A stretch of DNA of 64,000 nucleotides from a virus (lineage: Duplodnaviria > Caudoviricetes), in the IMG/VR virus record IMGVR_UViG_3300042448_001920, positions 2,102-66,101 of that record. One strand, 5' to 3'. Shown here one piece after another: positions 1 through 28,300 of this stretch (its first letter is position 1; each line of letters begins with the position of its first letter). The notes below the pieces were generated by a model. That model had not been told where the DNA came from. It worked only from the letters and a program-made list of their open reading frames with translations, and made no database searches. Made by a program: the position numbers and the translations under genes.

Positions 1-3000
1 TAACAATAGGGTATTGCGCAACTTTTCTTACGTAATATTGACCCTGATAGGTAACACAAGTTTCTGCTTTGTATTCTTTATTTGGGTCAAATACTGTCGC
101 ACCCGTTAAGTTGTGATAATACGTACCACCAGCTAATTTAGGTAATAATCTTTCACTAATAACACCAATAGTACCATAAGGTATTGGTAAACCTTCTGTT
201 GAAGGTGTTATTAATTCAGCTGCCGCAACTATCGGAATTAAATCCAATGAATTTTCAGCAAAGAAATCTTGTTCAAGATTTATTAAATCCCTCTCCCTTC
301 TATCCGTATTAGCAAATGTTCTTTCATCGTAAACATCTGTGTTAGCGTAATAGTTAAATGTTAACGCATTTTGTAATTGGTCAACATATCTTCTTAAGCC
401 TTGTCCACCAATATATTTAAATGATAAATTAACCTTAGCAAGCATTGGTTGTACACCGATACCTTCAGGATTTAAATCCCATAGTAACGGATCATAACTA
501 ATATTCAAACTATTAATAATGATTTTTGTGTGGTAAAAATCACCAATTCTTAAAACAGATACTGGTGGTCTACCAAAAGCTGTGTTTTTAGCATCACAAC
601 CAGGTACACCAATATCTTTAGTAATTGTATCACCAGGTCTCATACATTGCTGTAAGAAAGTTAATCTTGCGTTTAAACCTTCTGGTGTCATCGCATGGAA
701 TGCTGGGCTAAAATATTTTAATTTTTGTTTTAAACTATCAAAAATAATTGGTGACTCTTCTGATAAATAATCAAAGTAATCACACTCAGTTAATAATTTA
801 TTGAGTATTCTTTGCGCAATTTCTCTTTTAGTTACATTTGTTGTTGGAACTTCTTCCTCACGATATAACGGTGGTGTTTCCGCTGGTGGTTCCTTTCTTT
901 CCAAAGGTATTACTTTTGGTATAAGTTCAGCGTTAATTTCAACTCTTCTCGCAAATGAGGCAATTGGCGATAAGTTACCACAAACAATGTCAGATTCTTC
1001 TCTTGCTATTTGTTCAAAAGGTTTTGTTCTTACAGCTATACATGTACCAATATATTTTTCTGCTATTTTAGTACCATCCTTTAGTATAAAATTATCTTTA
1101 TATTTAAACCACTCATCTTTTGTTTTGACCATATAATAAGTTTCGTTTTGACCATAGCTTATTGGGAAATAGTCAACATTATCTTTGGTTTTAAGTGGTC
1201 TACCAAATAATTGGGTGTACTCGTTAGGTTCTGGGTTTGTTTGGAATAAATCGTCTAATGTCTGGCCTCTTGAAACAATATCAAAACTAATCTCTTGTTT
1301 AGAATTAATGTCACCTCTTAAAATAACAATTCTTTTTGATTTTTCCAAATCACCATGTAGTTTATTAACATCAGCTTCTGATATTATTTCTTTACCGTCT
1401 GTTGTAAAACATTTAACATCAGCATCACTCATTACATCAAGTATTAACCATTTTGTAACTGAAACAAATCTTCTTGAAGCCAATTTATCGTTATATCTTT
1501 GCAAAGCCGCTGCATCTTGACCAGGTGCTGATGGTGATGCGTGTGCAACCATACTAAATCTTAAATTATAATCTTTAGTACTAGCATAAGCTTTTGCTGA
1601 ATAAGTTTTTGCTATAGATTGGTATTGTTCCTTATAACCATATGATTTTTGGGGATATGTTTTTCTATCTTCTGTAAAAAAGTGTTGGTGTTCTGCTGGT
1701 GCGTTAGTACCTATTGTATAGTCATATCTAATCCAAGCTAATCTTTCGGCAGGTGATAAATTAGAATTACCGCCAACAGCAACTTCTTTAAACTCTGAGT
1801 TTTGGTCAAGTTTTGTACCTCTCGCCAAACTATCATATATTTCATAATAATCGGAATATTTGTCAACAACAAAATTATCTGGATTTTTATATGAATTTTT
1901 TTGTATTGGAATGTCGTTCTCAAAGAATAAATTAAACTGTGTGTTTTTTATAGTTTCTAATCTTGGGGTTTCTATCTTAACACCTTCTTGCTGGAAACTA
2001 CCAGATGATTCAACTTTAGTTCTTATTTTCTCATTAGGTAATCTAATATCTAAATCAGATATAACCTTTTTAAAATATTCAATATCACTATCACTAAATA
2101 CACCCCATATTCTCGCCAATTCAAATATGTCATAATCCAAACAACCAGCCCAAAAAGCCGCCAATAATTCGTCAACTTCACCATCCGTTAATTGGGCAAA
2201 TTCTTTATCAACCAATAAGTTCATTATTGTTGGGTGATCGACAACGATGTCCCATGACAACGTACCAGATCTTTCCGTGTTGTTATATGTATATATTGGT
2301 TCTGGTCTACCTAAAAATTGGTGAGTAGTCCAGTTTGTTGTTGTATCATCGGTAAATCTAATGTTATAAGGTGGGAACCACATGATTCTTCCACCATTAG
2401 AACCTTTTTCACAAGGTGGTAATTCATTAAATTGCGCTGAATCTCTCCAAGCTAAATTCTCAATGGAGAACATATATTTTCTCGCCCTTTTTTCACCAAA
2501 AGCTTCAACAACGGCATCACCCAAACCATCACCTAATCTACCATAACCTTCGTTAACGTTAAGTGCTGATGGGTGTATATTTAAGTTTCCGTATCTATCC
2601 AATACAGAATTTCTTTCTTTTCTATTTAATTCTTTCCATCTAATAAGATCTGTTATTTTCGAGAATGGCTTTGCTTTTGTCCAAGCTCTACAAAGAGTAA
2701 CCTCATTATACATTCTCTCATCATCTCTCTTACCAGCTGTATCCAAACCAGGTACTAAATAAGTATAACCAATAACCTCATCTTTTTTGTTTTTTCTTGT
2801 GGTTCTAAGTGGAGTAATTACACCAGAACTTTTTGGTGAAAAGTGGTATCCATCGGTAAATTTTGTTTTTGTTTGGTCAATGGATCTTATTGCACGGTTA
2901 CTATAACTACTTTCTAGTAATTTTTGTGTGACATCCATTATTGAACAATCTCTAAATCTATCAGCAGAAGTTCTGGATAAAATATCGTTATCAAGATCAG

Positions 3001-6000
3001 CATCCCAATTAAGTTTACCATTTTTACCATCTTCTATTGTCCAACGTGTTTCAACTGACTCACCTCTCCAAATAAATGAAGTTTGAACTGATCCGTATTT
3101 TGAAACATCTTCAACACCTGGTTCTACGAAATAGTTGGGTACACCACCGTTTTCTCCCGTACCAATTCTAATAGCCTTTGTTAACTCGCTATTAGCTTTA
3201 ACCTGTAAACCATTATTATCTTGTAACAAATAGAATATACTAACATTTTTACCAGCTGTAATGTATGGAGTGAAAACAACATCCTCAGTACCTTTTTGGG
3301 CTTTAGCTGTTCTTTTAAATAACCTTTTATCAGCACCACTTAATTTGTTTGTATAATCTGGTGAATATTTGTTATTACCTAAATTAGAAAACAAGAAAAA
3401 TCTTTGAGCTCTACCCGTTTCATCTAATCTATCAATAACTCTATTCTCTAATTTATCTTCTATTCTTGAATCACCGAAACAAGTTGGTCTTAGTGTAACA
3501 GAATCATCTGAAAAGAAAGCGGATGTTAAACCACCTAAACCACCAATATCTGAAATAAAGCTAGCTAATTTACCTAAACCGCCCTTAAATGTTGTGATAT
3601 CAGCATTACCCCTTTCAAGAATTGATGATGGATCTTTAATGAACTCAATAACTTTGAGTGGGTTTGTTAACATATCATCAATGGTTGTTAAACCAGCAAC
3701 TTCCTGAGCCGTTTTAGCTAATAACCTTGTGTTTAAATGGAATTTTAATTGCAATGCCGCTACTTGTGCCAACACCGTATCATTTTTTAAAGTAGGTTCG
3801 GTTAACAAATTTGCTATATCCAAATCAGCACCTAATAGAGCACTCAATGGTGTTGATGCTGTAGGTATATTTAAGAAATCACCCATTCTTATTTCTGTTG
3901 GGTCAGCATTACTTAATTTGTCCTGAGTAAGATATGGGTTTTGTGGTGTGTTTGGTGTTTGATTTAATAATAAATTTTGTAATATTTCATATACGACAAC
4001 ATTTTCAGCACCATATTTATTACTACTTATATTAGTTGTGTAGTTTGGTGTTAAACTAGATAATTGCGCCTGGTTAGGTACAATAAAGTCGTTTATGATT
4101 GTGGACGCACCAACTGGAACAACACCTGGGTTAGCTAATGTGAATGCATCAGTAGGATCGTTTGGATCCTTAACCATATTTTTATTAAATAAACTGATCA
4201 TTATTGGACCAGCCAATGTAACAACATCACCAGGGTTAAGATTTGCAAATGTACTTATTTGTGCTAAAGTACCTCTACCAGCTAAATACTGTGCAGCAAT
4301 TGACGCACTTGGTGATAAAGCGGTAAGACCAGCAGAAACATCTACTGGTGTGTTTAATGTCATTGATAAGTTTAAGTTCCTTGGTGTTACAGCTTGTGTT
4401 ATTACATCACCAGGGTTAACAACGTTAAAATTATTGATGGTTGTATCTAAACCTCTACCACCTAAATATTGGGATGCGATTAAAGCTGAAGGTGTTAAAT
4501 TAACAATACCAGCAGTAATATCAGCTGGTGTGTTTAGGTTCATCGCAAGATCCAATGTTCTTGGTGCAAATGCATCTGAAACAACATTACCAGGGTTTAC
4601 ATTTATATAGTCATTAATAACACTATCTAAACCTCTACCAGCCAAATATTGAGCCGCTAAAGCACCACTTAATGAAGTAACCCCAGCTGTAATATCAGCT
4701 GGTGTGTTTAGAGTATGTGAAAAGTTTAAGTTTCTTGGTATTACAGAGTCTGTAACAACGTTACCAGGGTTTGTGTTAGGTAATGTACCAATCGCAACAA
4801 ATGATCCCTTACCAGCCAAATATTGCGCTGCATAGGCGCCACTTAAATTATTAACCCCTGCGGCAATATCAACTGGGGTGTTTAATGTTTGTGCAAAGTT
4901 TTGTGTTCTAGGTGTTACAGCTTCACTCAATACATCACCAGGGTTTACGTTTGGTGATGTTGTGATAGCAACAAACGTACCTTTACCTGAAAGGTATTGT
5001 GCTGCTAAAGAAGCGTTGGGTGACAAATCATTTACACCAGCAGTAATGTCCGTAGGTGTACTTAATGTTTGTGCAAAGTTTTGTATTCTAGGAACTACAG
5101 CATCTGTTAATACATCTCCAGGGTTAACAACATTAAATGTGTTAATAACACTGAATGTACCTAAACCAGCTAAGTACTGTGCGGCATAAGCAGCGTTAGC
5201 AGTTAAATCGTTTACACCAGCGGTAATATCAGCAGGTGTATTTAGATTCATTGCAAGATCTAACGCTCTTGGTATTAATGCGTCAGTTAATACATCACCA
5301 GGGTTTATATTCGCAAATGTGTTAATTACGGTAAACGCACCCTTACCTGAAAGGTATTGTGCAGCGTATGCTGCGTTAGGCGTTAAATCGTTCACACCAG
5401 CAGTAATATCTGTAGGTGTGTTTAGAGTCATGGCGAAATCCAAGTTCCTTGGGGCAATTGCATCGGTTAATACATCACCAGGATTAACATTCACAAAATC
5501 ATTTACAACTGTGAATGAACCTCTACCTGAAAGGTATTGCGCAGCAAAAGTCGCATTAGCCGTTAAATCGTTTACACCAGCGGTAATATCCGTTGGGGTA
5601 TTTAATGTATGTGATAAATCCAAATTTCTTGGTGCAACAGCTTCTGTTAACACATCACTTGGATTTACATTTGAAAAATCATTTATTACGGTTAATTGAC
5701 CTTTACTATTAACCAAAGAAGCCACGTAAGCGGCACTTGTTGTTGTATCAAGTAAACCAGCGTTAATATCAGCTGGTGTATTTAATGTTTTATTAAGGTT
5801 TGCTATTCTAGCTGGGATACCATCAGTATCAACATCGCCAGGGTTTTGTACATTATGAAAATGTATCGCAGCGTCTTGTCCTAACGAACTCAAATAAGCG
5901 TTAACCGTAACCGAATTGGTTAAGTTAACCAAACCAGTTACAACATCAGGTGGTGCCTGTAAATTTAAATTAAGGATAACATTTCTAAACTGTCCCGATA

Positions 6001-6016
6001 TACTATTTAAGCTCAT
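1..6016 (-). CDS. Giant (>2000 aa, 3'-truncated) baseplate/tail-tube-initiator-like structural protein with N-terminal tandem repeats and an OmpA-like insert
   Basis: Absent from the ORF track, consistent with no stop before the window edge. ATG at 6016 (MSLNSISGQFRNVILNL...) is in the same frame as ...YVRKVAQYPIV at the window start. Contains RIMWFPPY..FLGRPEPIYTYNNTERSG and FGRPPVSVLRIGDFYHTKIII (gp48/gp54/CIS tube-initiator-like), and YNDKLASRRFVSV...RRVEI (OmpA-like). Confidence 0.8.
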   Translation of the reverse strand, partial: MSLNSISGQFRNVILNLNLQAPPDVVTGLVNLTNSVTVNAYLSSLGQDAAIHFHNVQNPGDVDTDGIPARIANLNKTLNTPADINAGLLDTTTSAAYVASLVNSKGQLTVINDFSNVNPSDVLTEAVAPRNLDLSHTLNTPTDITAGVNDLTANATFAAQYLSGRGSFTVVNDFVNVNPGDVLTDAIAPRNLDFAMTLNTPTDITAGVNDLTPNAAYAAQYLSGKGAFTVINTFANINPGDVLTDALIPRALDLAMNLNTPADITAGVNDLTANAAYAAQYLAGLGTFSVINTFNVVNPGDVLTDAVVPRIQNFAQTLSTPTDITAGVNDLSPNASLAAQYLSGKGTFVAITTSPNVNPGDVLSEAVTPRTQNFAQTLNTPVDIAAGVNNLSGAYAAQYLAGKGSFVAIGTLPNTNPGNVVTDSVIPRNLNFSHTLNTPADITAGVTSLSGALAAQYLAGRGLDSVINDYINVNPGNVVSDAFAPRTLDLAMNLNTPADITAGIVNLTPSALIASQYLGGRGLDTTINNFNVVNPGDVITQAVTPRNLNLSMTLNTPVDVSAGLTALSPSASIAAQYLAGRGTLAQISTFANLNPGDVVTLAGPIMISLFNKNMVKDPNDPTDAFTLANPGVVPVGASTIINDFIVPNQAQLSSLTPNYTTNISSNKYGAENVVVYEILQNLLLNQTPNTPQNPYLTQDKLSNADPTEIRMGDFLNIPTASTPLSALLGADLDIANLLTEPTLKNDTVLAQVAALQLKFHLNTRLLAKTAQEVAGLTTIDDMLTNPLKVIEFIKDPSSILERGNADITTFKGGLGKLASFISDIGGLGGLTSAFFSDDSVTLRPTCFGDSRIEDKLENRVIDRLDETGRAQRFFLFSNLGNNKYSPDYTNKLSGADKRLFKRTAKAQKGTEDVVFTPYITAGKNVSIFYLLQDNNGLQVKANSELTKAIRIGTGENGGVPNYFVEPGVEDVSKYGSVQTSFIWRGESVETRWTIEDGKNGKLNWDADLDNDILSRTSADRFRDCSIMDVTQKLLESSYSNRAIRSIDQTKTKFTDGYHFSPKSSGVITPLRTTRKNKKDEVIGYTYLVPGLDTAGKRDDERMYNEVTLCRAWTKAKPFSKITDLIRWKELNRKERNSVLDRYGNLNIHPSALNVNEGYGRLGDGLGDAVVEAFGEKRARKYMFSIENLAWRDSAQFNELPPCEKGSNGGRIMWFPPYNIRFTDDTTTNWTTHQFLGRPEPIYTYNNTERSGTLSWDIVVDHPTIMNLLVDKEFAQLTDGEVDELLAAFWAGCLDYDIFELARIWGVFSDSDIEYFKKVISDLDIRLPNEKIRTKVESSGSFQQEGVKIETPRLETIKNTQFNLFFENDIPIQKNSYKNPDNFVVDKYSDYYEIYDSLARGTKLDQNSEFKEVAVGGNSNLSPAERLAWIRYDYTIGTNAPAEHQHFFTEDRKTYPQKSYGYKEQYQSIAKTYSAKAYASTKDYNLRFSMVAHASPSAPGQDAAALQRYNDKLASRRFVSVTKWLILDVMSDADVKCFTTDGKEIISEADVNKLHGDLEKSKRIVILRGDINSKQEISFDIVSRGQTLDDLFQTNPEPNEYTQLFGRPLKTKDNVDYFPISYGQNETYYMVKTKDEWFKYKDNFILKDGTKIAEKYIGTCIAVRTKPFEQIAREESDIVCGNLSPIASFARRVEINAELIPKVIPLERKEPPAETPPLYREEEVPTTNVTKREIAQRILNKLLTECDYFDYLSEESPIIFDSLKQKLKYFSPAFHAMTPEGLNARLTFLQQCMRPGDTITKDIGVPGCDAKNTAFGRPPVSVLRIGDFYHTKIIINSLNISYDPLLWDLNPEGIGVQPMLAKVNLSFKYIGGQGLRRYVDQLQNALTFNYYANTDVYDERTFANTDRRERDLINLEQDFFAENSLDLIPIVAAAELITPSTEGLPIPYGTIGVISERLLPKLAGGTYYHNLTGATVFDPNKEYKAETCVTYQGQYYVRKVAQYPIV
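4110..5990 (-). repeat. ~10 tandem 174-180 bp (58-60 aa) coding repeats
   Basis: NP(G/S)(D/N)V anchors at about 5831, 5651, 5471, 5291, 5111, 4931, 4757, 4583, 4403 and 4223. Unit approximately NPGDVLTDAxxPRxLxxxxTLNTPxDITAGVNDLTxNAAYAAQYLxGxGxFxxxxxxxNx. Confidence 0.92.
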
Positions 6017-19144: not shown

Positions 19145-20923
19145 ATGCAGTTACCAATAGAAAAGAGAGCACTGGATATATTAAAAACATATAAGGGGTC
19201 TAACGATTACATATTAGGTATACAAAACACCTACTTCACAAGTAAAAGTTTTATACCAACAAAGAATCAAAGTGATTATATCATAAGGAATGGCGCTGTA
19301 GAACCAGTTGTTGTTAATAAATTATTTGATATTAGTAAATCTTGTAGACCTTTTATCGCTGAACAATTAAAATTAGATTTTATCCCAGATAAGATTTTTA
19401 TCAATAAATTACTCAGTAGAAAAGAAAATTTTTTACACGTATTTGGCTGTTTTGAAGAGGGTTGTGACAAATATTACACTTTTTATATTTCAAAAGAGTG
19501 TGTAAAGGTTAGTCGACCAGAACCAGAAATTGACCCAACAAAATATGAAAGGGATCCAAAACCACATCAAATAACAGCGATTAAAAAATTATTGACAAAC
19601 GATAAATTTATCCTGGCCGATGAGATGGGTCTTGGTAAAACAACATCCGCTATTATTGCGGCTATGGAAGGACAATTCAAAAAGATATTAGTTGTTTGCC
19701 CAGCATCTCTTAAACTTAACTGGAAGATTGAGATCTCAAATTACGACTCACCTGATAATATCAGTGTTGTTGACGGAAGCAATCTTACCGTAAAGAAATG
19801 GACTATTGTAAACTACGACATTCTTAAAAATTTTCACCATTTACCTAGACGTGGTGTCAAAACAGCGGATCTACCAGTATCACCAATCGATTACCATAAG
19901 TTTGATTTAGTTATTGCTGATGAGGCTCACTACCTTAAAAACGCTTCATCTAACAGAACAAAAATCTTTAATGATTTTGCGATGAAAATACCAGTAAGAT
20001 GGTTATTAACAGGTACACCGATCACAAATAAACCAATTGATTTTTATAATCTTCTGTATTTGTGTGATTCACCTGTTGCAGCTAACTGGGTTGGTTACGT
20101 TAAAAGATATTGTGCTGGTAGACAGTTTAATCGTAAAGGTACCAAACAAAAGTATTGGGTTTGTTCTGGATCTTCAAATCTTGAAGAATTAAAAGATTTT
20201 TCATCTGATGTTATCCTTAGAAGGACTAAAAACGATTCTATTGATTTACCGCAAAAGACTATTAAACCTGTGTATCTCCCATTAGAATTTTCAACGAGTT
20301 ACAATGCATATATTGCTGAGTATGAGGCTTGGATTGAAGAAATGGAAGCGGCTGGGGAAAAACCCACAATTACGGATCACCTTACAAAACTTATCAAAGT
20401 TAGACAATTATTATCTTATGATAAGATCGCTCATACAATTGAAATGGCTGAGGAAATGCTCGAGAACGGTCAAAAAGTTATCATATTTAGTTGTTTTACA
20501 AACACAATTAAAGAATTGCAAGCGCATTTTGGTAAAAAAGCTGTAACAATTGACGGGTCTGTTTCAAAAGAAAAAAGACAACAAGCTGTTGACCAATTTC
20601 AAACTGATGATAAAATCACCGTTTTCTTGGGTAACATTGTTGCCGCTGGTGTTGGTTTGACCTTGACTGAAAGTAGTGTTGTGATATTCAATGATTTAGA
20701 CTGGACACCAGCAAACCATATGCAAGCTGAAGATAGAGCACATAGAATTGGCCAACAAAACCAAGTTCACATCATTTATCCGTTATTTGCCGATACTTTG
20801 GATATGATCATGTACAAAGCACTTCAAAGTAAAATGAAGATTATTAGTACGATTATGGGTGATAACCCATCTGAAGAGGAAATATCAGTTGGTAAAGAGG
20901 TTATTATGCACCTTAGACGTTAA
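19145..20923 (+). CDS. SNF2/HARP-family DEAH helicase
   Basis: LADEMGLGKT, VVCPASLKLNW, DEAH, LTGTP, GVGLTL, DLDWTPANHMQAEDRAHRIGQ. Confidence 0.93.
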   Translation: MQLPIEKRALDILKTYKGSNDYILGIQNTYFTSKSFIPTKNQSDYIIRNGAVEPVVVNKLFDISKSCRPFIAEQLKLDFIPDKIFINKLLSRKENFLHVFGCFEEGCDKYYTFYISKECVKVSRPEPEIDPTKYERDPKPHQITAIKKLLTNDKFILADEMGLGKTTSAIIAAMEGQFKKILVVCPASLKLNWKIEISNYDSPDNISVVDGSNLTVKKWTIVNYDILKNFHHLPRRGVKTADLPVSPIDYHKFDLVIADEAHYLKNASSNRTKIFNDFAMKIPVRWLLTGTPITNKPIDFYNLLYLCDSPVAANWVGYVKRYCAGRQFNRKGTKQKYWVCSGSSNLEELKDFSSDVILRRTKNDSIDLPQKTIKPVYLPLEFSTSYNAYIAEYEAWIEEMEAAGEKPTITDHLTKLIKVRQLLSYDKIAHTIEMAEEMLENGQKVIIFSCFTNTIKELQAHFGKKAVTIDGSVSKEKRQQAVDQFQTDDKITVFLGNIVAAGVGLTLTESSVVIFNDLDWTPANHMQAEDRAHRIGQQNQVHIIYPLFADTLDMIMYKALQSKMKIISTIMGDNPSEEEISVGKEVIMHLRR

Positions 20924-22131: not shown

Positions 22132-23223
22132 ATGAGAATAAATCCAATCGAAAAGCAAAAAATATACAAACAAGCCAAACACAGGCTTGGGGCCCCTATT
22201 AGAAAGATTCAGTTAGAGGATGAGCAAATGGACTCACTTCTTGAAATCGCTACAGAAGATTATGTTGAGTTTATCAATAACTGGTTGATTGAACATCAAT
22301 GGCCAAGTTTAATTGGTTTGAATGTTAGCGAGGCTGATTTAACAAGAGCTTTTATTTATAGAACTTTTGATTTGGTTACACAATACACATATTCGTATTC
22401 GAAAATAGTTGGTTTGGGTGCTGGTGAGGGTGGTTATGTTCTTAAAAAAGACTATGTTGAGTTAGTTAAAGGTCAACAAATGTATGAAATCCCAGCTAAT
22501 AGAGAGATCAACGAAGTTTTATGGTTTACCCCAGCCTCATTAGACCAATCTGTTATTGACCCATTTTTAGGTGTTTGGAATAATCAATTTGGTGCCGAAT
22601 ACATGGGATTGGGTAGTTATTATATTCTGCCAGCCTTTGATATTTTAATGAGAACGACTGACAGAAATCTTAAGAACAGAATGATTCGTTCTGAGTTAAT
22701 TTATAAAATTACAAACGCACCAGATGGTAAAAAATATCTTCATTTAATGAACACACCTGGTGGTAGATTTGATTTTAGGGGTGCCATGGTTGAACAAGGT
22801 AAATGTTGGTATTGGTATTATGATATCAATCCATTGATAAAAGATGATTGTTTAGCTAAAAATAAAGATATTATTAAATCACCAGCCGATGTTCCTTTGG
22901 ATGATATTTCATTTGATGATTTAAATGACCCAGCTAAAGTTTGGATTAGAAGATATTTTATTGCGTTATGTAAAGAAACTTTAGGTAGAGTAAGAGGTAC
23001 TTTTGGTGGTAAAATACCAGTTCCAGATGCAAATATGGAAATTGAATACCAATCACTTTTATCAGAAGGTAAAGATGAAATGGTTACACTTAAAAAAGAA
23101 TTAGAGGATAGAATGTTCAAATTAAATCCATTAGAGATTTTAAAAAGAATGTCTACCGAAGCTGAAGAAATTAATAAAGCTCTTAGATACAGAGCTTTCC
23201 AAAAACCAATTAAAGTTATATAA
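22132..23223 (+). CDS. Neck/head-tail adaptor protein (gp13-like)
   Basis: RLGAPIRKIQLEDEQMD, WIRRYFIALCKETLGRVRG, LLSEGKDE. Confidence 0.8.
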   Translation: MRINPIEKQKIYKQAKHRLGAPIRKIQLEDEQMDSLLEIATEDYVEFINNWLIEHQWPSLIGLNVSEADLTRAFIYRTFDLVTQYTYSYSKIVGLGAGEGGYVLKKDYVELVKGQQMYEIPANREINEVLWFTPASLDQSVIDPFLGVWNNQFGAEYMGLGSYYILPAFDILMRTTDRNLKNRMIRSELIYKITNAPDGKKYLHLMNTPGGRFDFRGAMVEQGKCWYWYYDINPLIKDDCLAKNKDIIKSPADVPLDDISFDDLNDPAKVWIRRYFIALCKETLGRVRGTFGGKIPVPDANMEIEYQSLLSEGKDEMVTLKKELEDRMFKLNPLEILKRMSTEAEEINKALRYRAFQKPIKVI

Positions 23224-24860
23224 TGTTTTATACAGCCCTAGATAAAAGTGAATATTTCGATTTAATCGTAACAAATGATTGCCGTGATTTCTATCGTGAT
23301 TATAGCGAATGTTATTTAATTGATATTAACGTTACAGCAGGTCTTTGCTCAACAACTGGAATATCACAATCAGAAGAGATTGAACTCGAGAATATAACTT
23401 TAAACGGTTATGATAATTTTTTCATAAACAACGGTGAGGTATCTAATATAAACAATTTCACTGGGGACACCATCGGTTACACGGTTAATGAAAATGTTGT
23501 TGTTAATGTTGATAAGGACCTAGTTTATGTTATTGAAACAGGTGATACATTTTGTTTTCACGAAATATCTGGTTACAGTGGTAATTATTGTTATGAAATT
23601 GATCATTTAAGGGTTGATAATGGTGTTTATTATAACAAATTAAATGGTGGTTTTTATCAAGGTTTTTATAAAATTTTTGGTGAAAATGTTGAATGGTATC
23701 CAGCTAGAGCTAAAATGGGTTGGACCGTTGATATGGTTGTTCATTTTCCAATGGATTTAACAGGTTCAACTGGAACTAGTGGCACCTCTGGAACATCTGG
23801 GTCTTCAGGATCTAACGGTACCTCTGGAACATCAGGTTCCTCAGGATCATTCGGATCTTCTGGGTCTTCTGGTGTTTGTTTAACGTTAAATGACACATAC
23901 CCAAATAACAGTGGTTTTGTTTTTTATTTAGGTACTAGAGCTGAAAATAAATTTGCCGACAAAACTGATGTTGAAATACAAAGATTTGAGGATAACTACA
24001 ATGTTGTGCCACTAAACACACAAAACCTATTTACATATAATAATTTAATAAGTTTGGATGGTTTAACAAATTATGTCGGTTATTTTAATTACTATAATGG
24101 TTTAATGTATACTGGTAGAAATTATACAGTTGACTCACAACCACTACAGTATCATCAAGAATATAGTGATTTAACATATAACGCTTTTGGTATTAGAGTT
24201 ACAAATGACGGTAGAATTGGGTATAGAACAATATACCCAACCGATATTTGCTATACTGGTGTAACACAAGAAGTTAGCGGTATAACAAATAATTCATTCA
24301 TTATGGATCCAACCGATGACTGCGTTAATTATACAAGAGCATTAATCGTTACAAAGTATTTTACTATAGAAGAATGTTACACCAAAAACCCAGTAATTGA
24401 TGTAACCGAAAATAAGTTTTTAAATATAACTGGTGTATTTGAAAGAGATTTTGCGTATGGAAATAATTGCCAGTTAAAATACGGTGATTATAAAAAAGGT
24501 ACGTTCTCAATTTATCTTAACGGGTTTTTAGTTTTTAGAAATCGTAATTTTGTTGAGGTTATACCTCATGAATTAGATACCGAAGCTAAATATCAAGAGG
24601 GTGTTCCATTTAACATTTCATTTGGTGGTGGAACCCAAAGTTTGATCGACACTGTGGTATTTGATAAAACAAAAGTTATGGGTACTGTTTTAGAAAGATT
24701 TTTTGCTGGTACATTTTTAGGTGGGGTGAAATCTATTAAGATGTATTGTGTACCTTTGTATACGGTTGAAATCAAAAAAAATGTTTTAAATATAGCTAGT
24801 TTATATAATTTACCAATAATAAAAGGTGGTAGACAGATATTTATAAAAAATAGATTCTAA
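23223..24860 (+). CDS. Virion structural protein (LamG/lectin-like C-terminus) with Gly-Ser/Thr triplet tract
   Basis: Beta-rich 545 aa; FSIYLNG..F and FAGTFLGGVKSIKMY. Translationally coupled to the neck gene. Confidence 0.55.
   Translation: MFYTALDKSEYFDLIVTNDCRDFYRDYSECYLIDINVTAGLCSTTGISQSEEIELENITLNGYDNFFINNGEVSNINNFTGDTIGYTVNENVVVNVDKDLVYVIETGDTFCFHEISGYSGNYCYEIDHLRVDNGVYYNKLNGGFYQGFYKIFGENVEWYPARAKMGWTVDMVVHFPMDLTGSTGTSGTSGTSGSSGSNGTSGTSGSSGSFGSSGSSGVCLTLNDTYPNNSGFVFYLGTRAENKFADKTDVEIQRFEDNYNVVPLNTQNLFTYNNLISLDGLTNYVGYFNYYNGLMYTGRNYTVDSQPLQYHQEYSDLTYNAFGIRVTNDGRIGYRTIYPTDICYTGVTQEVSGITNNSFIMDPTDDCVNYTRALIVTKYFTIEECYTKNPVIDVTENKFLNITGVFERDFAYGNNCQLKYGDYKKGTFSIYLNGFLVFRNRNFVEVIPHELDTEAKYQEGVPFNISFGGGTQSLIDTVVFDKTKVMGTVLERFFAGTFLGGVKSIKMYCVPLYTVEIKKNVLNIASLYNLPIIKGGRQIFIKNRF
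23760..23873 (+). repeat. (G-x-x)12 Ser/Thr-rich low-complexity coding repeat
   Basis: TGSTGTSGTSGTSGSSGSNGTSGTSGSSGSFGSSGSSG. Confidence 0.9.
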
Positions 24861-25317: not shown

Positions 25318-28300
25318 ATGGCCGAATACAAGATTTCCCTTGAAGAGATAGAAAAGTTTTTAAATGGGCACGATGATGAAAAATACATCGTGAATGTTGA
25401 GTATGATGCCGAAACTAATCTGATCCATAAGATTAAACAGGACCCAGAGAGGGGTAATTATGTTGAAACAGAGCCTCTGTTGGCTTTTATGTGGATTAAA
25501 AACCTTAACAAGATTAAGGAAATAGTTAATTTTTACGGAAATAGTGATTCAAAAATCAAAGCCGCTAGACAAAGATACGGCATTGAAATCAAATCTTTAG
25601 GTGGGGATCACCCTAAATTAATTGATGGTTATAAATATTTGGTAACTTGTAACCAGGGTCAAAAAAGAATGTTAGAGTTCTTTAGAGAGGGTGGTATTTT
25701 TGTCTATGATACTAGACATGATATTAAATCACATTTTTTGATGTTATCACCTGTTGAGCAGTATTTTATACACACTGGTAAAAGATTATTTAAAGGGTTT
25801 GAGGAGTATGATGAAATCCACAAATTCATATTTGACTTAGAGACAACAGGTTTAGATCCAGCAATCAACCGTATTTTTTTAATTGGTATCTACACTAACT
25901 TAGGTGTTAGAGAAATCATACCCATTGAAGATAATGATGAGTCTGAAAGACAAGGTATTATAAAATTCTTTGAGAAAATCAATGAGATTAAACCAACAAT
26001 TATTGCTGGATATAATAGTGCAAACTTTGACTGGCCATTCTTCTTTAAAAGATGTGAAATTCTCGGGTTAAATATTCAGGATATTGCTATAACACTAAAA
26101 GTTGGTGAATTAATCAACAACAAAGATAGCATGTTAAAATTGGGTAATGAGGTTGAAAACTACACCCAAACTAATATGTTCGGTTACAGTGTGATTGACA
26201 TTATCCACTCCGCTAGACGTGCCCAAGCTATCGATTCTAGTATGAAATCTGTTGGTTTGAAGTATGTTTGTAAGTACAACAAGATCGCTAAAAAGAATCG
26301 TGTTTACATTGTTGGCGATAAAATCGGTGATACTTGGTATTCTGAAAGCAAGTTTTATTTTGATGATAGAACGGGCGCATACGCTAAAACAAAACCCGCT
26401 TTAGAGTTTATGGATTACATTCGCAGAGAAGATATCCAAGCTAATCCAGATAAAGTTTTTGTTTTTGGTGATAACATGATAAGACAGGGACTTGGTGGCC
26501 AGGCTAAAGAAATGCGTGGTGAACCAAATGTTATTGGTATTGTAACTAAACATACACCAGAATCAAACCCAGAGTCTTATTTTAATGACAAAGATTTTGA
26601 GGATATTAAAAAACATATCGATGCCGATGTTAATCAAATAATCGAAAAGATTAAACAGGGTAAAACAATTGTCTTCCCTAAAATGGGTATTGGTACAGGT
26701 TTGGCTCAATTAGATATGCGAGCACCAAAAACATTCAAATACCTAGTTGGTTTATTACGTGCATTACGTGAATATATTAATACATTTCAAGAGGTTGATG
26801 GTAGATACATCGTTGAGCGTTACCTGATTGATGACTTATGGGAGACCATGGAAGTTGACGATGTTTATAATCAATCATCATTCTTGTTGGCTAAATTAGT
26901 ACCAACAACATACCAAAGGGTATCAACTATGGGTACCGCTGGTTTGTGGAAACTACTGATGATGACATATTCATTTGAAAATGATTTGGCCATACCAGTA
27001 TCTGATGTTAAAAGAGATTACACTGGTGGTTTATCGAGATTGTTTAAGGTCGGTTACTCAACGACTTTAAGAAAGATGGACTACAATTCACTTTACCCAG
27101 CTATTCAGTTGGCCCATGATGTATTCCCAGCTGTTGATGTTAACGGTGCGATGAAATCGATGTTAAAGTATTTCCACACTGAACGTTTTAAAGCCAAAAA
27201 TTTGGCTAGTAAATACAAAAAAGAAGGTAACTATCAGTTAGCTGACAAATACAAACGTAAGCAGTTACCACTTAAGATCTTCATTAACTCAATGTTCGGT
27301 GCCTTGGGAGCACCTATGGCTTTCCAATGGGCTGAGATTGATGTCAGCGAACGTATTACATGTACGGCAAGGCAATACCTTAGACTCATGGTCACATTTT
27401 TCCTTAAACGAGGTTACACACCCTTGGTACTTGATACGGATGGTGTGAACTTCATGGCCCCTAAGAATGGTGAACCATTTACTTATGTAGGTAAAGGTTT
27501 TAATGATGAGGTTGAGGCTGGTAAAGAATATAAAGGTGTCAAAGCTGTTGTGGCTGAATTTAATGATACGTACATGCGTGGTGAAATGGGTCTTGGTTTG
27601 GATGGTATTTGGCCAGCAACCATAAACTTATCAAGAAAAAACTACGCTTTATTAGAAGATGATGGAACGATCAGTTTAACTGGTAACAGTATTAAATCAA
27701 AAGCTATGCCCGTTTATATCGAAGAATTTTTAGGTAAGGGTATGAAAATGTTATTAAATGGACATGGTTACGATTTCGTACAATATTACTATGAATATGC
27801 TGAAAAGGTGTGTAATAAGCAAATACCGTTATCTAAAATCGCCACAAAATCTAGGGTTAAGAAATCAATAAACGCTTACATAAATCGTGGTGGTGATAAA
27901 AACGGTAAACAATTGGCTAAACAAGCCCACATGGAATTAGCTATTAAACATAACCTAGATGTTAACCTTGGTGATACAATTTATTACGTTAATAACGGTA
28001 AAACTAAATCACACGGAGATGCCCAGGAAGATAAAAACGGTGAAATGTATGCTACATTAGTACCGAATGACATTATCGAAAACCAACCAGATTATATTGG
28101 TGAATACAATGTACCAAAATATTTGGAAGCTTTAAATAAAAAAGTTGAGCCTTTGTTAGTTGCTTTCCCACTTGAAGTTAGAGATAAAATCCTAATTAAA
28201 AAATCTGGTGAAAGAACAATGTTCTTAAAATCTGAGTTAGAATTAGTGAATGATCAACCAACAGATATTGAAGATCAGGATACTTTGGAAGAATTTTTTA

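Follow-up and report, generated by a model that had tools for sequence, protein, structure and literature searches.

An intact DUF7831 domain inserted in the exonuclease domain of a phage family B DNA polymerase, and its possible link to ADP-ribose

The window analysed here, a stretch of 64,000 nucleotides out of the 66,101 bases of the tailed-phage record IMGVR_UViG_3300042448_001920, encodes a replicative family B DNA polymerase (PolB) that carries a second domain inside its exonuclease domain. This second domain is a complete and motif-intact copy of DUF7831, a Pfam family without an assigned function, and the polymerase around it is otherwise normal. From the predicted fold, the conserved residues and the domains to which DUF7831 is fused elsewhere, we consider with moderate confidence that the domain binds or hydrolyses a ligand of the ADP-ribose (ADPr) type. 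We suggest more tentatively, as a possibility somewhat short of even, that the module tethered to the replisome acts on ADP-ribose attached to single-stranded DNA by toxins of the DarT type. The strict, fork-coupled version, in which a built-in DarG-like glycohydrolase would erase ADP-ribosyl-thymine (or -guanine) in cis, is quite unlikely. CheckV put the completeness of the 66-kb record at 22%, and the whole phage genome is therefore probably about 300 kb.

The polymerase and its inserted domain

The open reading frame (ORF) is a family B DNA polymerase with intact exonuclease and polymerase motifs (Table 1), and among the PHROG families it matched phrog_262, 'DNA polymerase', with an E value of 6.5e-45. 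The original prediction had described an in-frame block of about 128 amino acids (aa) between ExoII and ExoIII. This was borne out, as the block covers residues 361-488 (nucleotides 26398-26781) and lies between these two motifs, within the 3′–5′ exonuclease domain. The strings that had been quoted for it, FGDN (383-386), GLGGQA (391-396), IVTK (408-411) and FPKMGIGTGLAQL (453-465), are each present once. The block matched the Pfam family DUF7831 (PF25176) with an E value of 1.2e-44 and 151.4 bits (cut-off 27), from position 2 to position 116 of the 118-position profile, and it also matched PHROG 2072 (phrog_2072; E 2.8e-16), again a family without a function. At the same site, the polymerases of 18 sister-clade relatives (919-1067 aa) have only 14-17 residues in the alignment compared to 128 in the window, and the flanks are well conserved; the block is therefore a genuine and clean domain insertion. 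The GC content of the insert was 0.339 and that of the rest of the ORF 0.348, with no compositional break.

An intein was considered as an identity for the block and discarded. The Pfam scan of the window polymerase matched no intein family, nor any Hint/splicing or homing endonuclease family, and the block begins with an Ala and ends with an Asn inside a helix. A polymerase relative of 1,392 aa (P0173) carries the intein families PF14528 and PF14890 beside DUF7831, and thus inteins do enter this polymerase clade, yet they are distinct from the insert.

Table 1. Position of the polymerase gene, its motifs and the inserted domain in the window. Residues are numbered in the polymerase; conservation of the polymerase motifs refers to 83 relatives and that of the insert to 117 sequences.
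Feature	Residues	Window position	Strand	Observation
Family B replicative DNA polymerase	1032 aa	25318..28416	+	Pfam DNA_pol_B_exo1 and DNA_pol_B matched
ExoI, FDLETTG	172-178	25831..25851	+	D173, E175 invariant in 83 relatives
ExoII, GYNSANFD	231-238	26008..26031	+	F237, D238 invariant in 83 relatives
Inserted DUF7831 domain (ALEF...REYIN)	361-488	26398..26781	+	Pfam PF25176
Pfam envelope of the DUF7831 insert	363-477	26404-26748	+	PF25176
First glycine loop and preceding end of strand 1, FGDN-x4-GLGGQA	383-396	26464..26505	+	8 residues invariant, 117/117
EMRGEPN loop, then strand 2 with T410-K411 at its end (candidate catalytic Lys)		26509..26550	+	R, N, G, K invariant
End of strand 3 and second glycine loop, FPKMGIGTGLAQL	453-465	26674..26712	+	P, G, G, T, G at least 90% conserved
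ExoIII, YLIDD	502-506	26821..26835	+	Y502, L503, D505, D506 invariant in 83 relatives
Polymerase motif A, DYNSLYP	588-594	27079..27099	+	D588, S591, L592, Y593, P594 invariant
Polymerase motif B, KIFINSMFG	653-661		+	K653 invariant in 83 relatives
Polymerase motif C, LDTDG	705-709	27430..27444	+	D706, T707, D708, G709 invariant

The fusion of PolB and DUF7831 is of old origin and occurs widely among large uncultivated phages. Among the best 120 full-length polymerase relatives listed, 76 contained PF25176 and 44 did not, and carriers were found down to a polymerase identity of about 48% and on contigs of up to 358 kb. The motifs were counted in an alignment of 83 polymerases, 65 with the insert and 18 without it; the comparison with related polymerases that had been proposed earlier thus showed that the insert is not integral to all of them. 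Fifty-one of the 83 agreed with the window in N386, in K411 and in 14 or more of 18 motif positions. Seven had 11-13 of the 18 positions, with the Asn retained and either Lys or Arg, in polymerases that were 73-79% identical to that of the window, and another seven retained an insert of 86-127 aa with six positions or fewer. The motifs were partly or wholly gone in 14 of the 65 insert-bearing polymerases (P0185-P0187, P0202, P0204-P0206 and P0128-P0136). The polymerase function dispenses with the motifs of the insert and, where they are retained, they are strict. Because there are relatives that lack the domain or have its motifs destroyed, the activity of the insert is taken to be accessory to polymerisation.

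A tree of PolB inserts and stand-alone DUF7831 proteins (318 tips) was calculated after exclusion of seven degenerate PolB inserts, two of which were shorter than 100 aa, and five of which sat on long branches and were removed after distorting a first tree. A single clade (support 0.933) held 45 of the 58 PolB inserts and one other sequence. All 58 PolB inserts and 14 others, which could include fragments of PolB, formed a clade with a support of 0.848. In five insert-bearing records, DUF7831 was present solely inside PolB. The tree fits, and is no proof of, one or a few captures that may have been followed by vertical descent and repeated decay of the insert.

Conservation and predicted fold of DUF7831

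A profile built from 117 members and run against 1.84 billion representatives gave a size for the family of 2,560 clusters at 50% identity (E ≤ 0.001). The members are mostly stand-alone proteins of about 125-135 aa from large phages, giant viruses and mobile elements, and the search for stand-alone forms, with 396 candidates of 92-294 aa, gave 360 matches at E ≤ 0.001. The insert is 39-54% identical to stand-alone proteins from Caulobacter, Rhizobium, Sinorhizobium, Rhodobacter and Ruegeria phages and from metagenomes, and the named phage sources of the family also include Brevundimonas phages. In phiM9 and RcXuper the stand-alone genes were found among small hypothetical genes, which is an uninformative setting. 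All 117 aligned relatives matched PF25176, and 12 positions (F, G, D, N, G, G, Q, A, R, N, G and K) were invariant in 117 of 117 sequences. Eighteen further positions, including the T of the T-K pair, were at least 90% conserved. Judged from the alignment, this pattern would fit an active site or a tight ligand pocket better than a spacer. The name DUF7831 was found in no paper in our literature search, and a search of the ESM Atlas with the domain returned DUF7831 clusters and nothing else.

Macro domains have a three-layer α/β/α fold in which two glycine-rich loops hold the diphosphate and the distal ribose of ADP-ribose. The AlphaFold2 model of the DUF7831 domain alone, based on the 117-sequence alignment, had a predicted local distance difference test (pLDDT) score of 90.4 and a predicted template modelling (pTM) score of 0.83 and showed a compact, four-stranded α/β fold with two glycine-rich loops. 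In order, a short strand and a helix are followed by strand 1, which has FGDN at its end, the GLGGQA loop and a short helix. Strand 2, with TK at its end, then leads into a long helix, and strand 3, with FP at its end, into the GIGTG loop and another long helix. The same elements of the insert were present in the model of the full-length polymerase (pLDDT 89.3, pTM 0.79), a check that had been suggested with the original prediction. The two loops, GLGGQA after strand 1 and GIGTG after strand 3, are conserved and, by conjecture, may line one shared ADPr pocket. The predicted fold is that of proteins from Tupanvirus, Hyperionvirus and the Caulobacter phage Seuss, with template modelling (TM) scores of 0.79-0.86, and Yasminevirus is also among the giant viruses with fold matches.

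A Foldseek search of the PDB with the domain model gave nothing at E ≤ 0.001, the best E value being 0.11 and the query-normalised TM score at most 0.44, and the weak matches listed were protein tyrosine phosphatases, Get3, NifH and CbiL, with no macrodomain among them. The VIA structural comparison, against a set of 48,161 representative chains in which the share of macrodomains was assumed, rather than counted, to be small, found a macro fold in 12 of the 14 best matches, and the other two were halves of the CbiL methyltransferase. The top three matches, Poa1p among them, came from one subgroup (DarG/TARG1/Poa1p), and this group was colinear with the model over about 105-109 residues. A DarG/TARG1-like profile of 21 sequences matched 2afc with an E value of 3.9e-12, Poa1p with 1.8e-10 and the designed hydrolase 4ess with 1.1e-6. 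The DarG/TARG1-like macrodomain of the original prediction is thus the best structural description of the insert, but membership of that group by sequence or profile failed.

The Pfam Macro family (PF01661) and the PADLOC DarG model PDLC02990 each gave no match at E ≤ 10 in the 117 members; the DarG model reached an E value of 1e-132 on two true DarG proteins adjoining DarT. With hhalign, DUF7831 scored 1.4-13.8% over about 20 columns against two MacroD-type alignments. Against a 26-sequence DarG/TARG1-like alignment, it scored a probability of 15% (P 0.0018) over 82 columns, and a built-in profile-profile tool gave 12.3% for this pair. When calibrated on the same small alignments, hhalign gave 99.5% for DarG against MacroD and 99.8% for TARG1-like against DarG. 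The DarG/TARG1-like alignment was the best of 42, which included 37 decoy families from neighbouring genes, with a small score margin (26.5 vs 24.9). The failed macro and DarG profile tests mean, therefore, that DUF7831 is not recognisable as a macrodomain by sequence methods and, if it is a macrodomain, it is a very remote and shortened form.

The T-K motif that had been pointed out as a mark of the DarG/TARG1 class was confirmed, since K411 is invariant in 117 of 117 sequences, stands at the end of strand 2 in T-K, and was set by hhalign on the Lys of the DarG PTK. The same comparison paired IGI(P/V)TK with INFPTK and PxxGIGTGLAxL with IPPLGCGLGGL, with a long helix between them. The catalytic lysine of TARG1 is K84. 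DarG2 uses residues N22 and K80 (PMC13309987, figure legend), and K411 would be a candidate catalytic lysine and the counterpart of K80. N386 is likewise invariant in 117 of 117 sequences and is located at the end of strand 1, in a segment that hhalign left unaligned to the VNTVN strand of DarG. It is a candidate counterpart of N22 by its position, not by alignment.

Other identities for the domain were also tried. A phosphatase was rejected, as the superpositions had a root-mean-square deviation of 9-11 Å and no phosphatase was found among the 50 VIA structural matches listed, which also contained no SLOG and no TIR chains. A SLOG domain was weakened as a reading by an hhalign probability of 0.1% against a 16-sequence YAcAr alignment, by the absence of SLOG from the structural matches listed, and by one protein (P0321) in which a separate SLOG domain is fused to DUF7831. 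One of the 117 members weakly matched ThsA_Macro (E 0.13) and PADLOC ThsA1 (E 0.02), and four gave weak matches to the NCBIfam family A1S_2505_Nterm (E 0.055). When the family profile was compared to the sequences of the PDB, triose-phosphate isomerase alone was found (E 0.054), over a GIGTGLA-like stretch, and this was taken as chance.

Fusion partners and genomic settings

A Pfam scan of 22 multidomain DUF7831 proteins found NADAR and/or DUF4326 in five of them. Two metagenomic proteins of 841 and 919 aa (P0272 and P0307) were DUF7831-DUF4326-NADAR triple fusions, one was a fusion with NADAR (P0325), and two were fusions with DUF4326 (P0249 and P0303). DUF488-N3a was found in three of the 22, under the cut-off in one of these. 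Single proteins carried the cpYpsA SLOG domain (P0321), an AlkB-like dioxygenase, a zeta/AAA_33 kinase together with UvrB_inter and phage Mu F, DUF7666, sigma-70 regions 3 and 4 (P0333), or a sub-threshold match to the 2H phosphodiesterase family 2H CPD (P0286), and eight had no further family. Published work is drawn on here from parts of five papers (PMC9503650, PMC7824862, PMC11481870, PMC13309987 and PMC11377751). In these parts, NADAR proteins, including the phage protein AdfN, are described to remove the guanine ADP-ribosylation made by DarT1. For jumbo phages and giant viruses, Iyer et al. interpret combinations of Macro, SLOG, NADAR and DUF4326 as modules that process ADPr, in which DUF4326 forms a bridge to replication and restriction-modification components. 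The fusions with NADAR, DUF4326, SLOG and AlkB-like domains lend independent support to an ADP-ribose role, and this context is the strongest clue to the function. The ADP-ribose role of the original prediction gains from this context, but not from a proof of family membership by sequence.

We also examined 80 cellular DUF7831 loci; a single bacterial family dominates the counts, and they are not independent of each other. The gene is small at 59 loci and very large (480 to 3,400 aa) at 15 or more, mostly in Pyrinomonadaceae. Recurrent neighbours were the single-stranded DNA-binding protein SSB (36 loci), an unknown protein of 552 aa (34) and RNase H (33), and, more rarely, YAcAr SLOG (16), relaxase (10) and DUF4326 (9). 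Together, these neighbours are reminiscent of the leading (entry) region of conjugative elements, in which the DNA is single-stranded. A Methylobacterium copy adjoins a cytosine methylase and a Rhizobium copy adjoins an SNF2 helicase. In a planctomycete, an Isosphaeraceae metagenome-assembled genome (L069:5995-7891), the DUF7831 gene overlaps the start of a nicotinamide phosphoribosyltransferase (NAMPT) gene by a few bases, which is a link to NAD salvage. Eight Hymenobacter genomes (L017, L025, L027, L048, L062, L064, L068 and L073) share a conserved chromosomal setting in the order ileS (isoleucyl-tRNA synthetase), lspA (signal peptidase II), DUF7831, ABC ATPase and RNase R, which points to a cellular rather than a mobile-element role in these bacteria.

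DUF7831 is N-terminal or internal in proteins of 1,300-6,725 aa that, apart from DUF488-N3a, are almost without a further Pfam match. They were found at loci L002, L005, L010, L011, L012, L016, L024, L028 and L038, from Pyrinomonadaceae and other Acidobacteria, and at L074, and also include P0264, P0284, P0299 and P0386; in this they are similar to the proteins of phages and conjugative elements that are called 'polyvalent'. Three proteins of uncultured crAss-like phages (A0A7M1RV35, A0A7M1RU68 and A0A7M1RTM7; 1,278-1,451 aa) have a DUF7831-like fold in BFVD, with E values of 2e-6 to 5e-6 and TM scores of 0.68-0.78. The window insert weakly matches profile positions 547-649 of phrog_17 'DNA polymerase' (E 0.067), and together with the crAss-like fold matches this may point to a second polymerase lineage with DUF7831. 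In the window itself, a 545-aa ORF (23223-24860, plus strand) lies two genes upstream of the polymerase and contains a Gly-Thr/Ser-Ser-Gly collagen-like run; it gave weak matches to tail-fibre PHROGs and is an odd neighbour for a replication gene. A 592-aa SNF2/DEAD-type helicase (19145-20923, plus strand; phrog_62, E 3e-109) is encoded a few genes upstream of the polymerase, and an open frame of 2,005 aa (2-6016, minus strand) runs off the start of the window.

Proposed role, alternatives and known systems

We propose that DUF7831 is a module that would bind and hydrolyse ADP-ribose, or a related NAD-derived ligand, and that it is a pared-down, macrodomain-like domain nearest to DarG, TARG1 and Poa1p. 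Its insertion in the polymerase would place this activity in the replisome, where the likeliest substrate would be the ADP-ribose put on single-stranded template DNA by DarT-type defence toxins. N386 and K411 would then act like N22 and K80 of DarG2 and keep replication unblocked. In the strict version, which is the less likely one, an ADP-ribosylated base would be erased by read-ahead repair as soon as it is encountered in the single-stranded template, close in front of the active site. DarT toxins stop phages by ADP-ribosylating single-stranded DNA, and the known phage answers, in the parts of the literature drawn on, are the separate proteins AdfA, AdfB, AdfN (NADAR) and AdfM (macrodomain), or point mutations in the polymerase. 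A DarT lesion is favoured as the target because the top structural matches are DarG-like, because the company of the domain consists of NADAR, SSB, AlkB-like and relaxase proteins, and because DarT stops phage replication and one phage escapes via polymerase mutations.

Several results weigh against this proposal. The hhalign probability for the DarG/TARG1-like alignment dropped from 15% to 4.4% once 144 more diverse segments were added, and it was 0.2% against five TARG1-like stand-alone sequences alone. No Macro, NADAR or DUF4326 genes were found elsewhere in the 66-kb record, in which DarT was not searched for. In ten phage records of the sister clade (23-75% complete), DUF7831, Macro and NADAR genes were all absent, and no pattern of compensation, with a replacement gene for the missing insert, was seen in this comparison, which the fragmentary records make weak. 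The housekeeping contexts in some bacteria count in the same direction.

The alternative that survives best, although we consider it somewhat unlikely, is that DUF7831 belongs to the same class of enzymes and acts on soluble NAD-derived molecules or ADP-ribosylated proteins instead of template DNA. Candidate substrates would be ADPr-1′′-phosphate, as for Poa1p, O-acetyl-ADPr, or immune signals of the cyclic ADPr type, and the fusion to PolB would merely secure early co-expression or localisation. Poa1p, an ADPr-1′′-phosphate phosphatase, is found in the top three structural matches, and the weak 2H CPD match, the NAMPT neighbour and the housekeeping context in Hymenobacter would all suit a soluble substrate. 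So would the fusions with DUF4326, for which Iyer et al. predict an action on ribose-linked phosphates of ADPr, and the view in Iyer et al. 2022, in the part drawn on, that most phage Macro, NADAR and SLOG domains target diffusible ADPr derivatives. However, the insertion lies inside the exonuclease domain and is kept down to about 48% PolB identity, an association closer than co-expression needs, and the other partners (NADAR, SSB, RNase H, relaxase and AlkB-like) are DNA-centred.

It is improbable that the domain is unrelated to ADP-ribose, as a small Rossmann-like module with a different chemistry, of nucleotides or phosphates, or as a docking platform for another protein of the replisome, with a likeness to macrodomains that arose by convergence. 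Against this stand the 12 macrodomains among the 14 best structural matches with the top three from one subgroup, the repeated independent fusions with NADAR, DUF4326 and SLOG, and motifs that are strict in 51 of the 65 insert-bearing polymerases and in 117 of 117 stand-alone proteins. More improbable still is a non-catalytic sensor that binds an NAD-derived or nucleotide defence signal and switches the balance between polymerase and exonuclease. Its location in the exonuclease domain, the regulatory architecture of the sigma-70 fusion in P0333, and the sporadic SLOG fusions to 3′–5′ exonuclease, helicase and HNH domains that Iyer et al. 2022 propose, in the part drawn on, to be regulated by ADPr derivatives ('sensor-activated') would suit such a sensor, but the conserved polar set (D, N, Q, E, R, E, N, T, K, D, T) exceeds a usual binding pocket, most members are stand-alone proteins free of an effector, and a relation to SLOG was undetected by hhalign, by the single weak ThsA match and among the VIA matches listed.

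If the proposal of a DarT-directed eraser is true, its placement within the polymerase would be a third phage strategy against DarT, and read-ahead repair would make the replisome intrinsically resistant to DarT-type defence. To our knowledge, a family B replicase that contains an enzyme for lesion reversal would be without precedent. By extension, the minimal macrodomains united in DUF7831 would form a large group that has escaped recognition, and phages, giant viruses and conjugative elements could shield incoming or replicating single-stranded DNA with them. If DUF7831 is DarG-like, the triple fusions with NADAR could reverse both thymine- and guanine-linked marks (those of DarT2 and DarT1, respectively). 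The link to ADP-ribose would also give an annotation to the roughly 2,560 clusters of a gene that is common in jumbo phages, giant viruses and mobile elements, and a minimal scaffold of about 115 residues for ADPr recognition would be of use to biochemists. Should the ADP-ribose role fail, DUF7831 is still a frequent and strongly conserved enzyme-like domain that needs a function.

The insertion had been presented as undescribed. A family B polymerase with such an insert was not found described in the parts of the literature drawn on, but the block is the known Pfam family DUF7831, and Iyer et al. 2022 mention, for their figure 5i, a 'SLOG fused to 3′-5′ exonuclease', the examples of which could include the polymerase of the window. 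DUF7831 takes a place in the same architectures as the Macro/SLOG domains in the viral ADPr proteins with DUF4326 and NADAR of Iyer, Burroughs, Anantharaman and Aravind 2021/2022, and the distribution of DUF7831 in jumbo phages and giant viruses is that of their ADPr-processing proteins. These authors name Macro, SLOG and NADAR, but, in the parts drawn on, neither DUF7831 nor an insertion in PolB. The stand-alone DUF7831 proteins (PF25176) and the insert have a full-length match to the family in common; the insert differs in being part of a polymerase, not a separate protein.

Archaeal family B polymerases scan the template in a read-ahead mode via a uracil pocket in their N-terminal domain. 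With this accessory pocket, they are a precedent for a PolB in which the template strand is inspected before it reaches the active site. The pocket senses and stalls only, and has an unrelated fold in the N-terminal domain, whereas the DUF7831 insert is enzyme-like, located in the exonuclease domain, and its contact with the template is hypothetical.

The closest structural likeness of the insert model is to the macrodomains of DarG2, TARG1 and Poa1p, including phage AdfM. The insert differs from this group in showing no significant sequence or profile relation, in having about 115 residues compared to about 150, and in its four strands; it has neither the final strand nor the unit of helix and strand that separates loop 1 from the TK strand. 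Unlike the DarG antitoxin, the insert is a single domain of 115-128 aa flanked by polymerase, without a C-terminal domain that binds DarT. In common with the DarG2 group, it has, in the same order, a strand with Asn at its end and a glycine loop after it, a strand that closes with Thr-Lys and, ahead of the last helix, a Pro-x-x-Gly-x-Gly loop, and with AdfM of this group it shares a setting of phage counter-defence.

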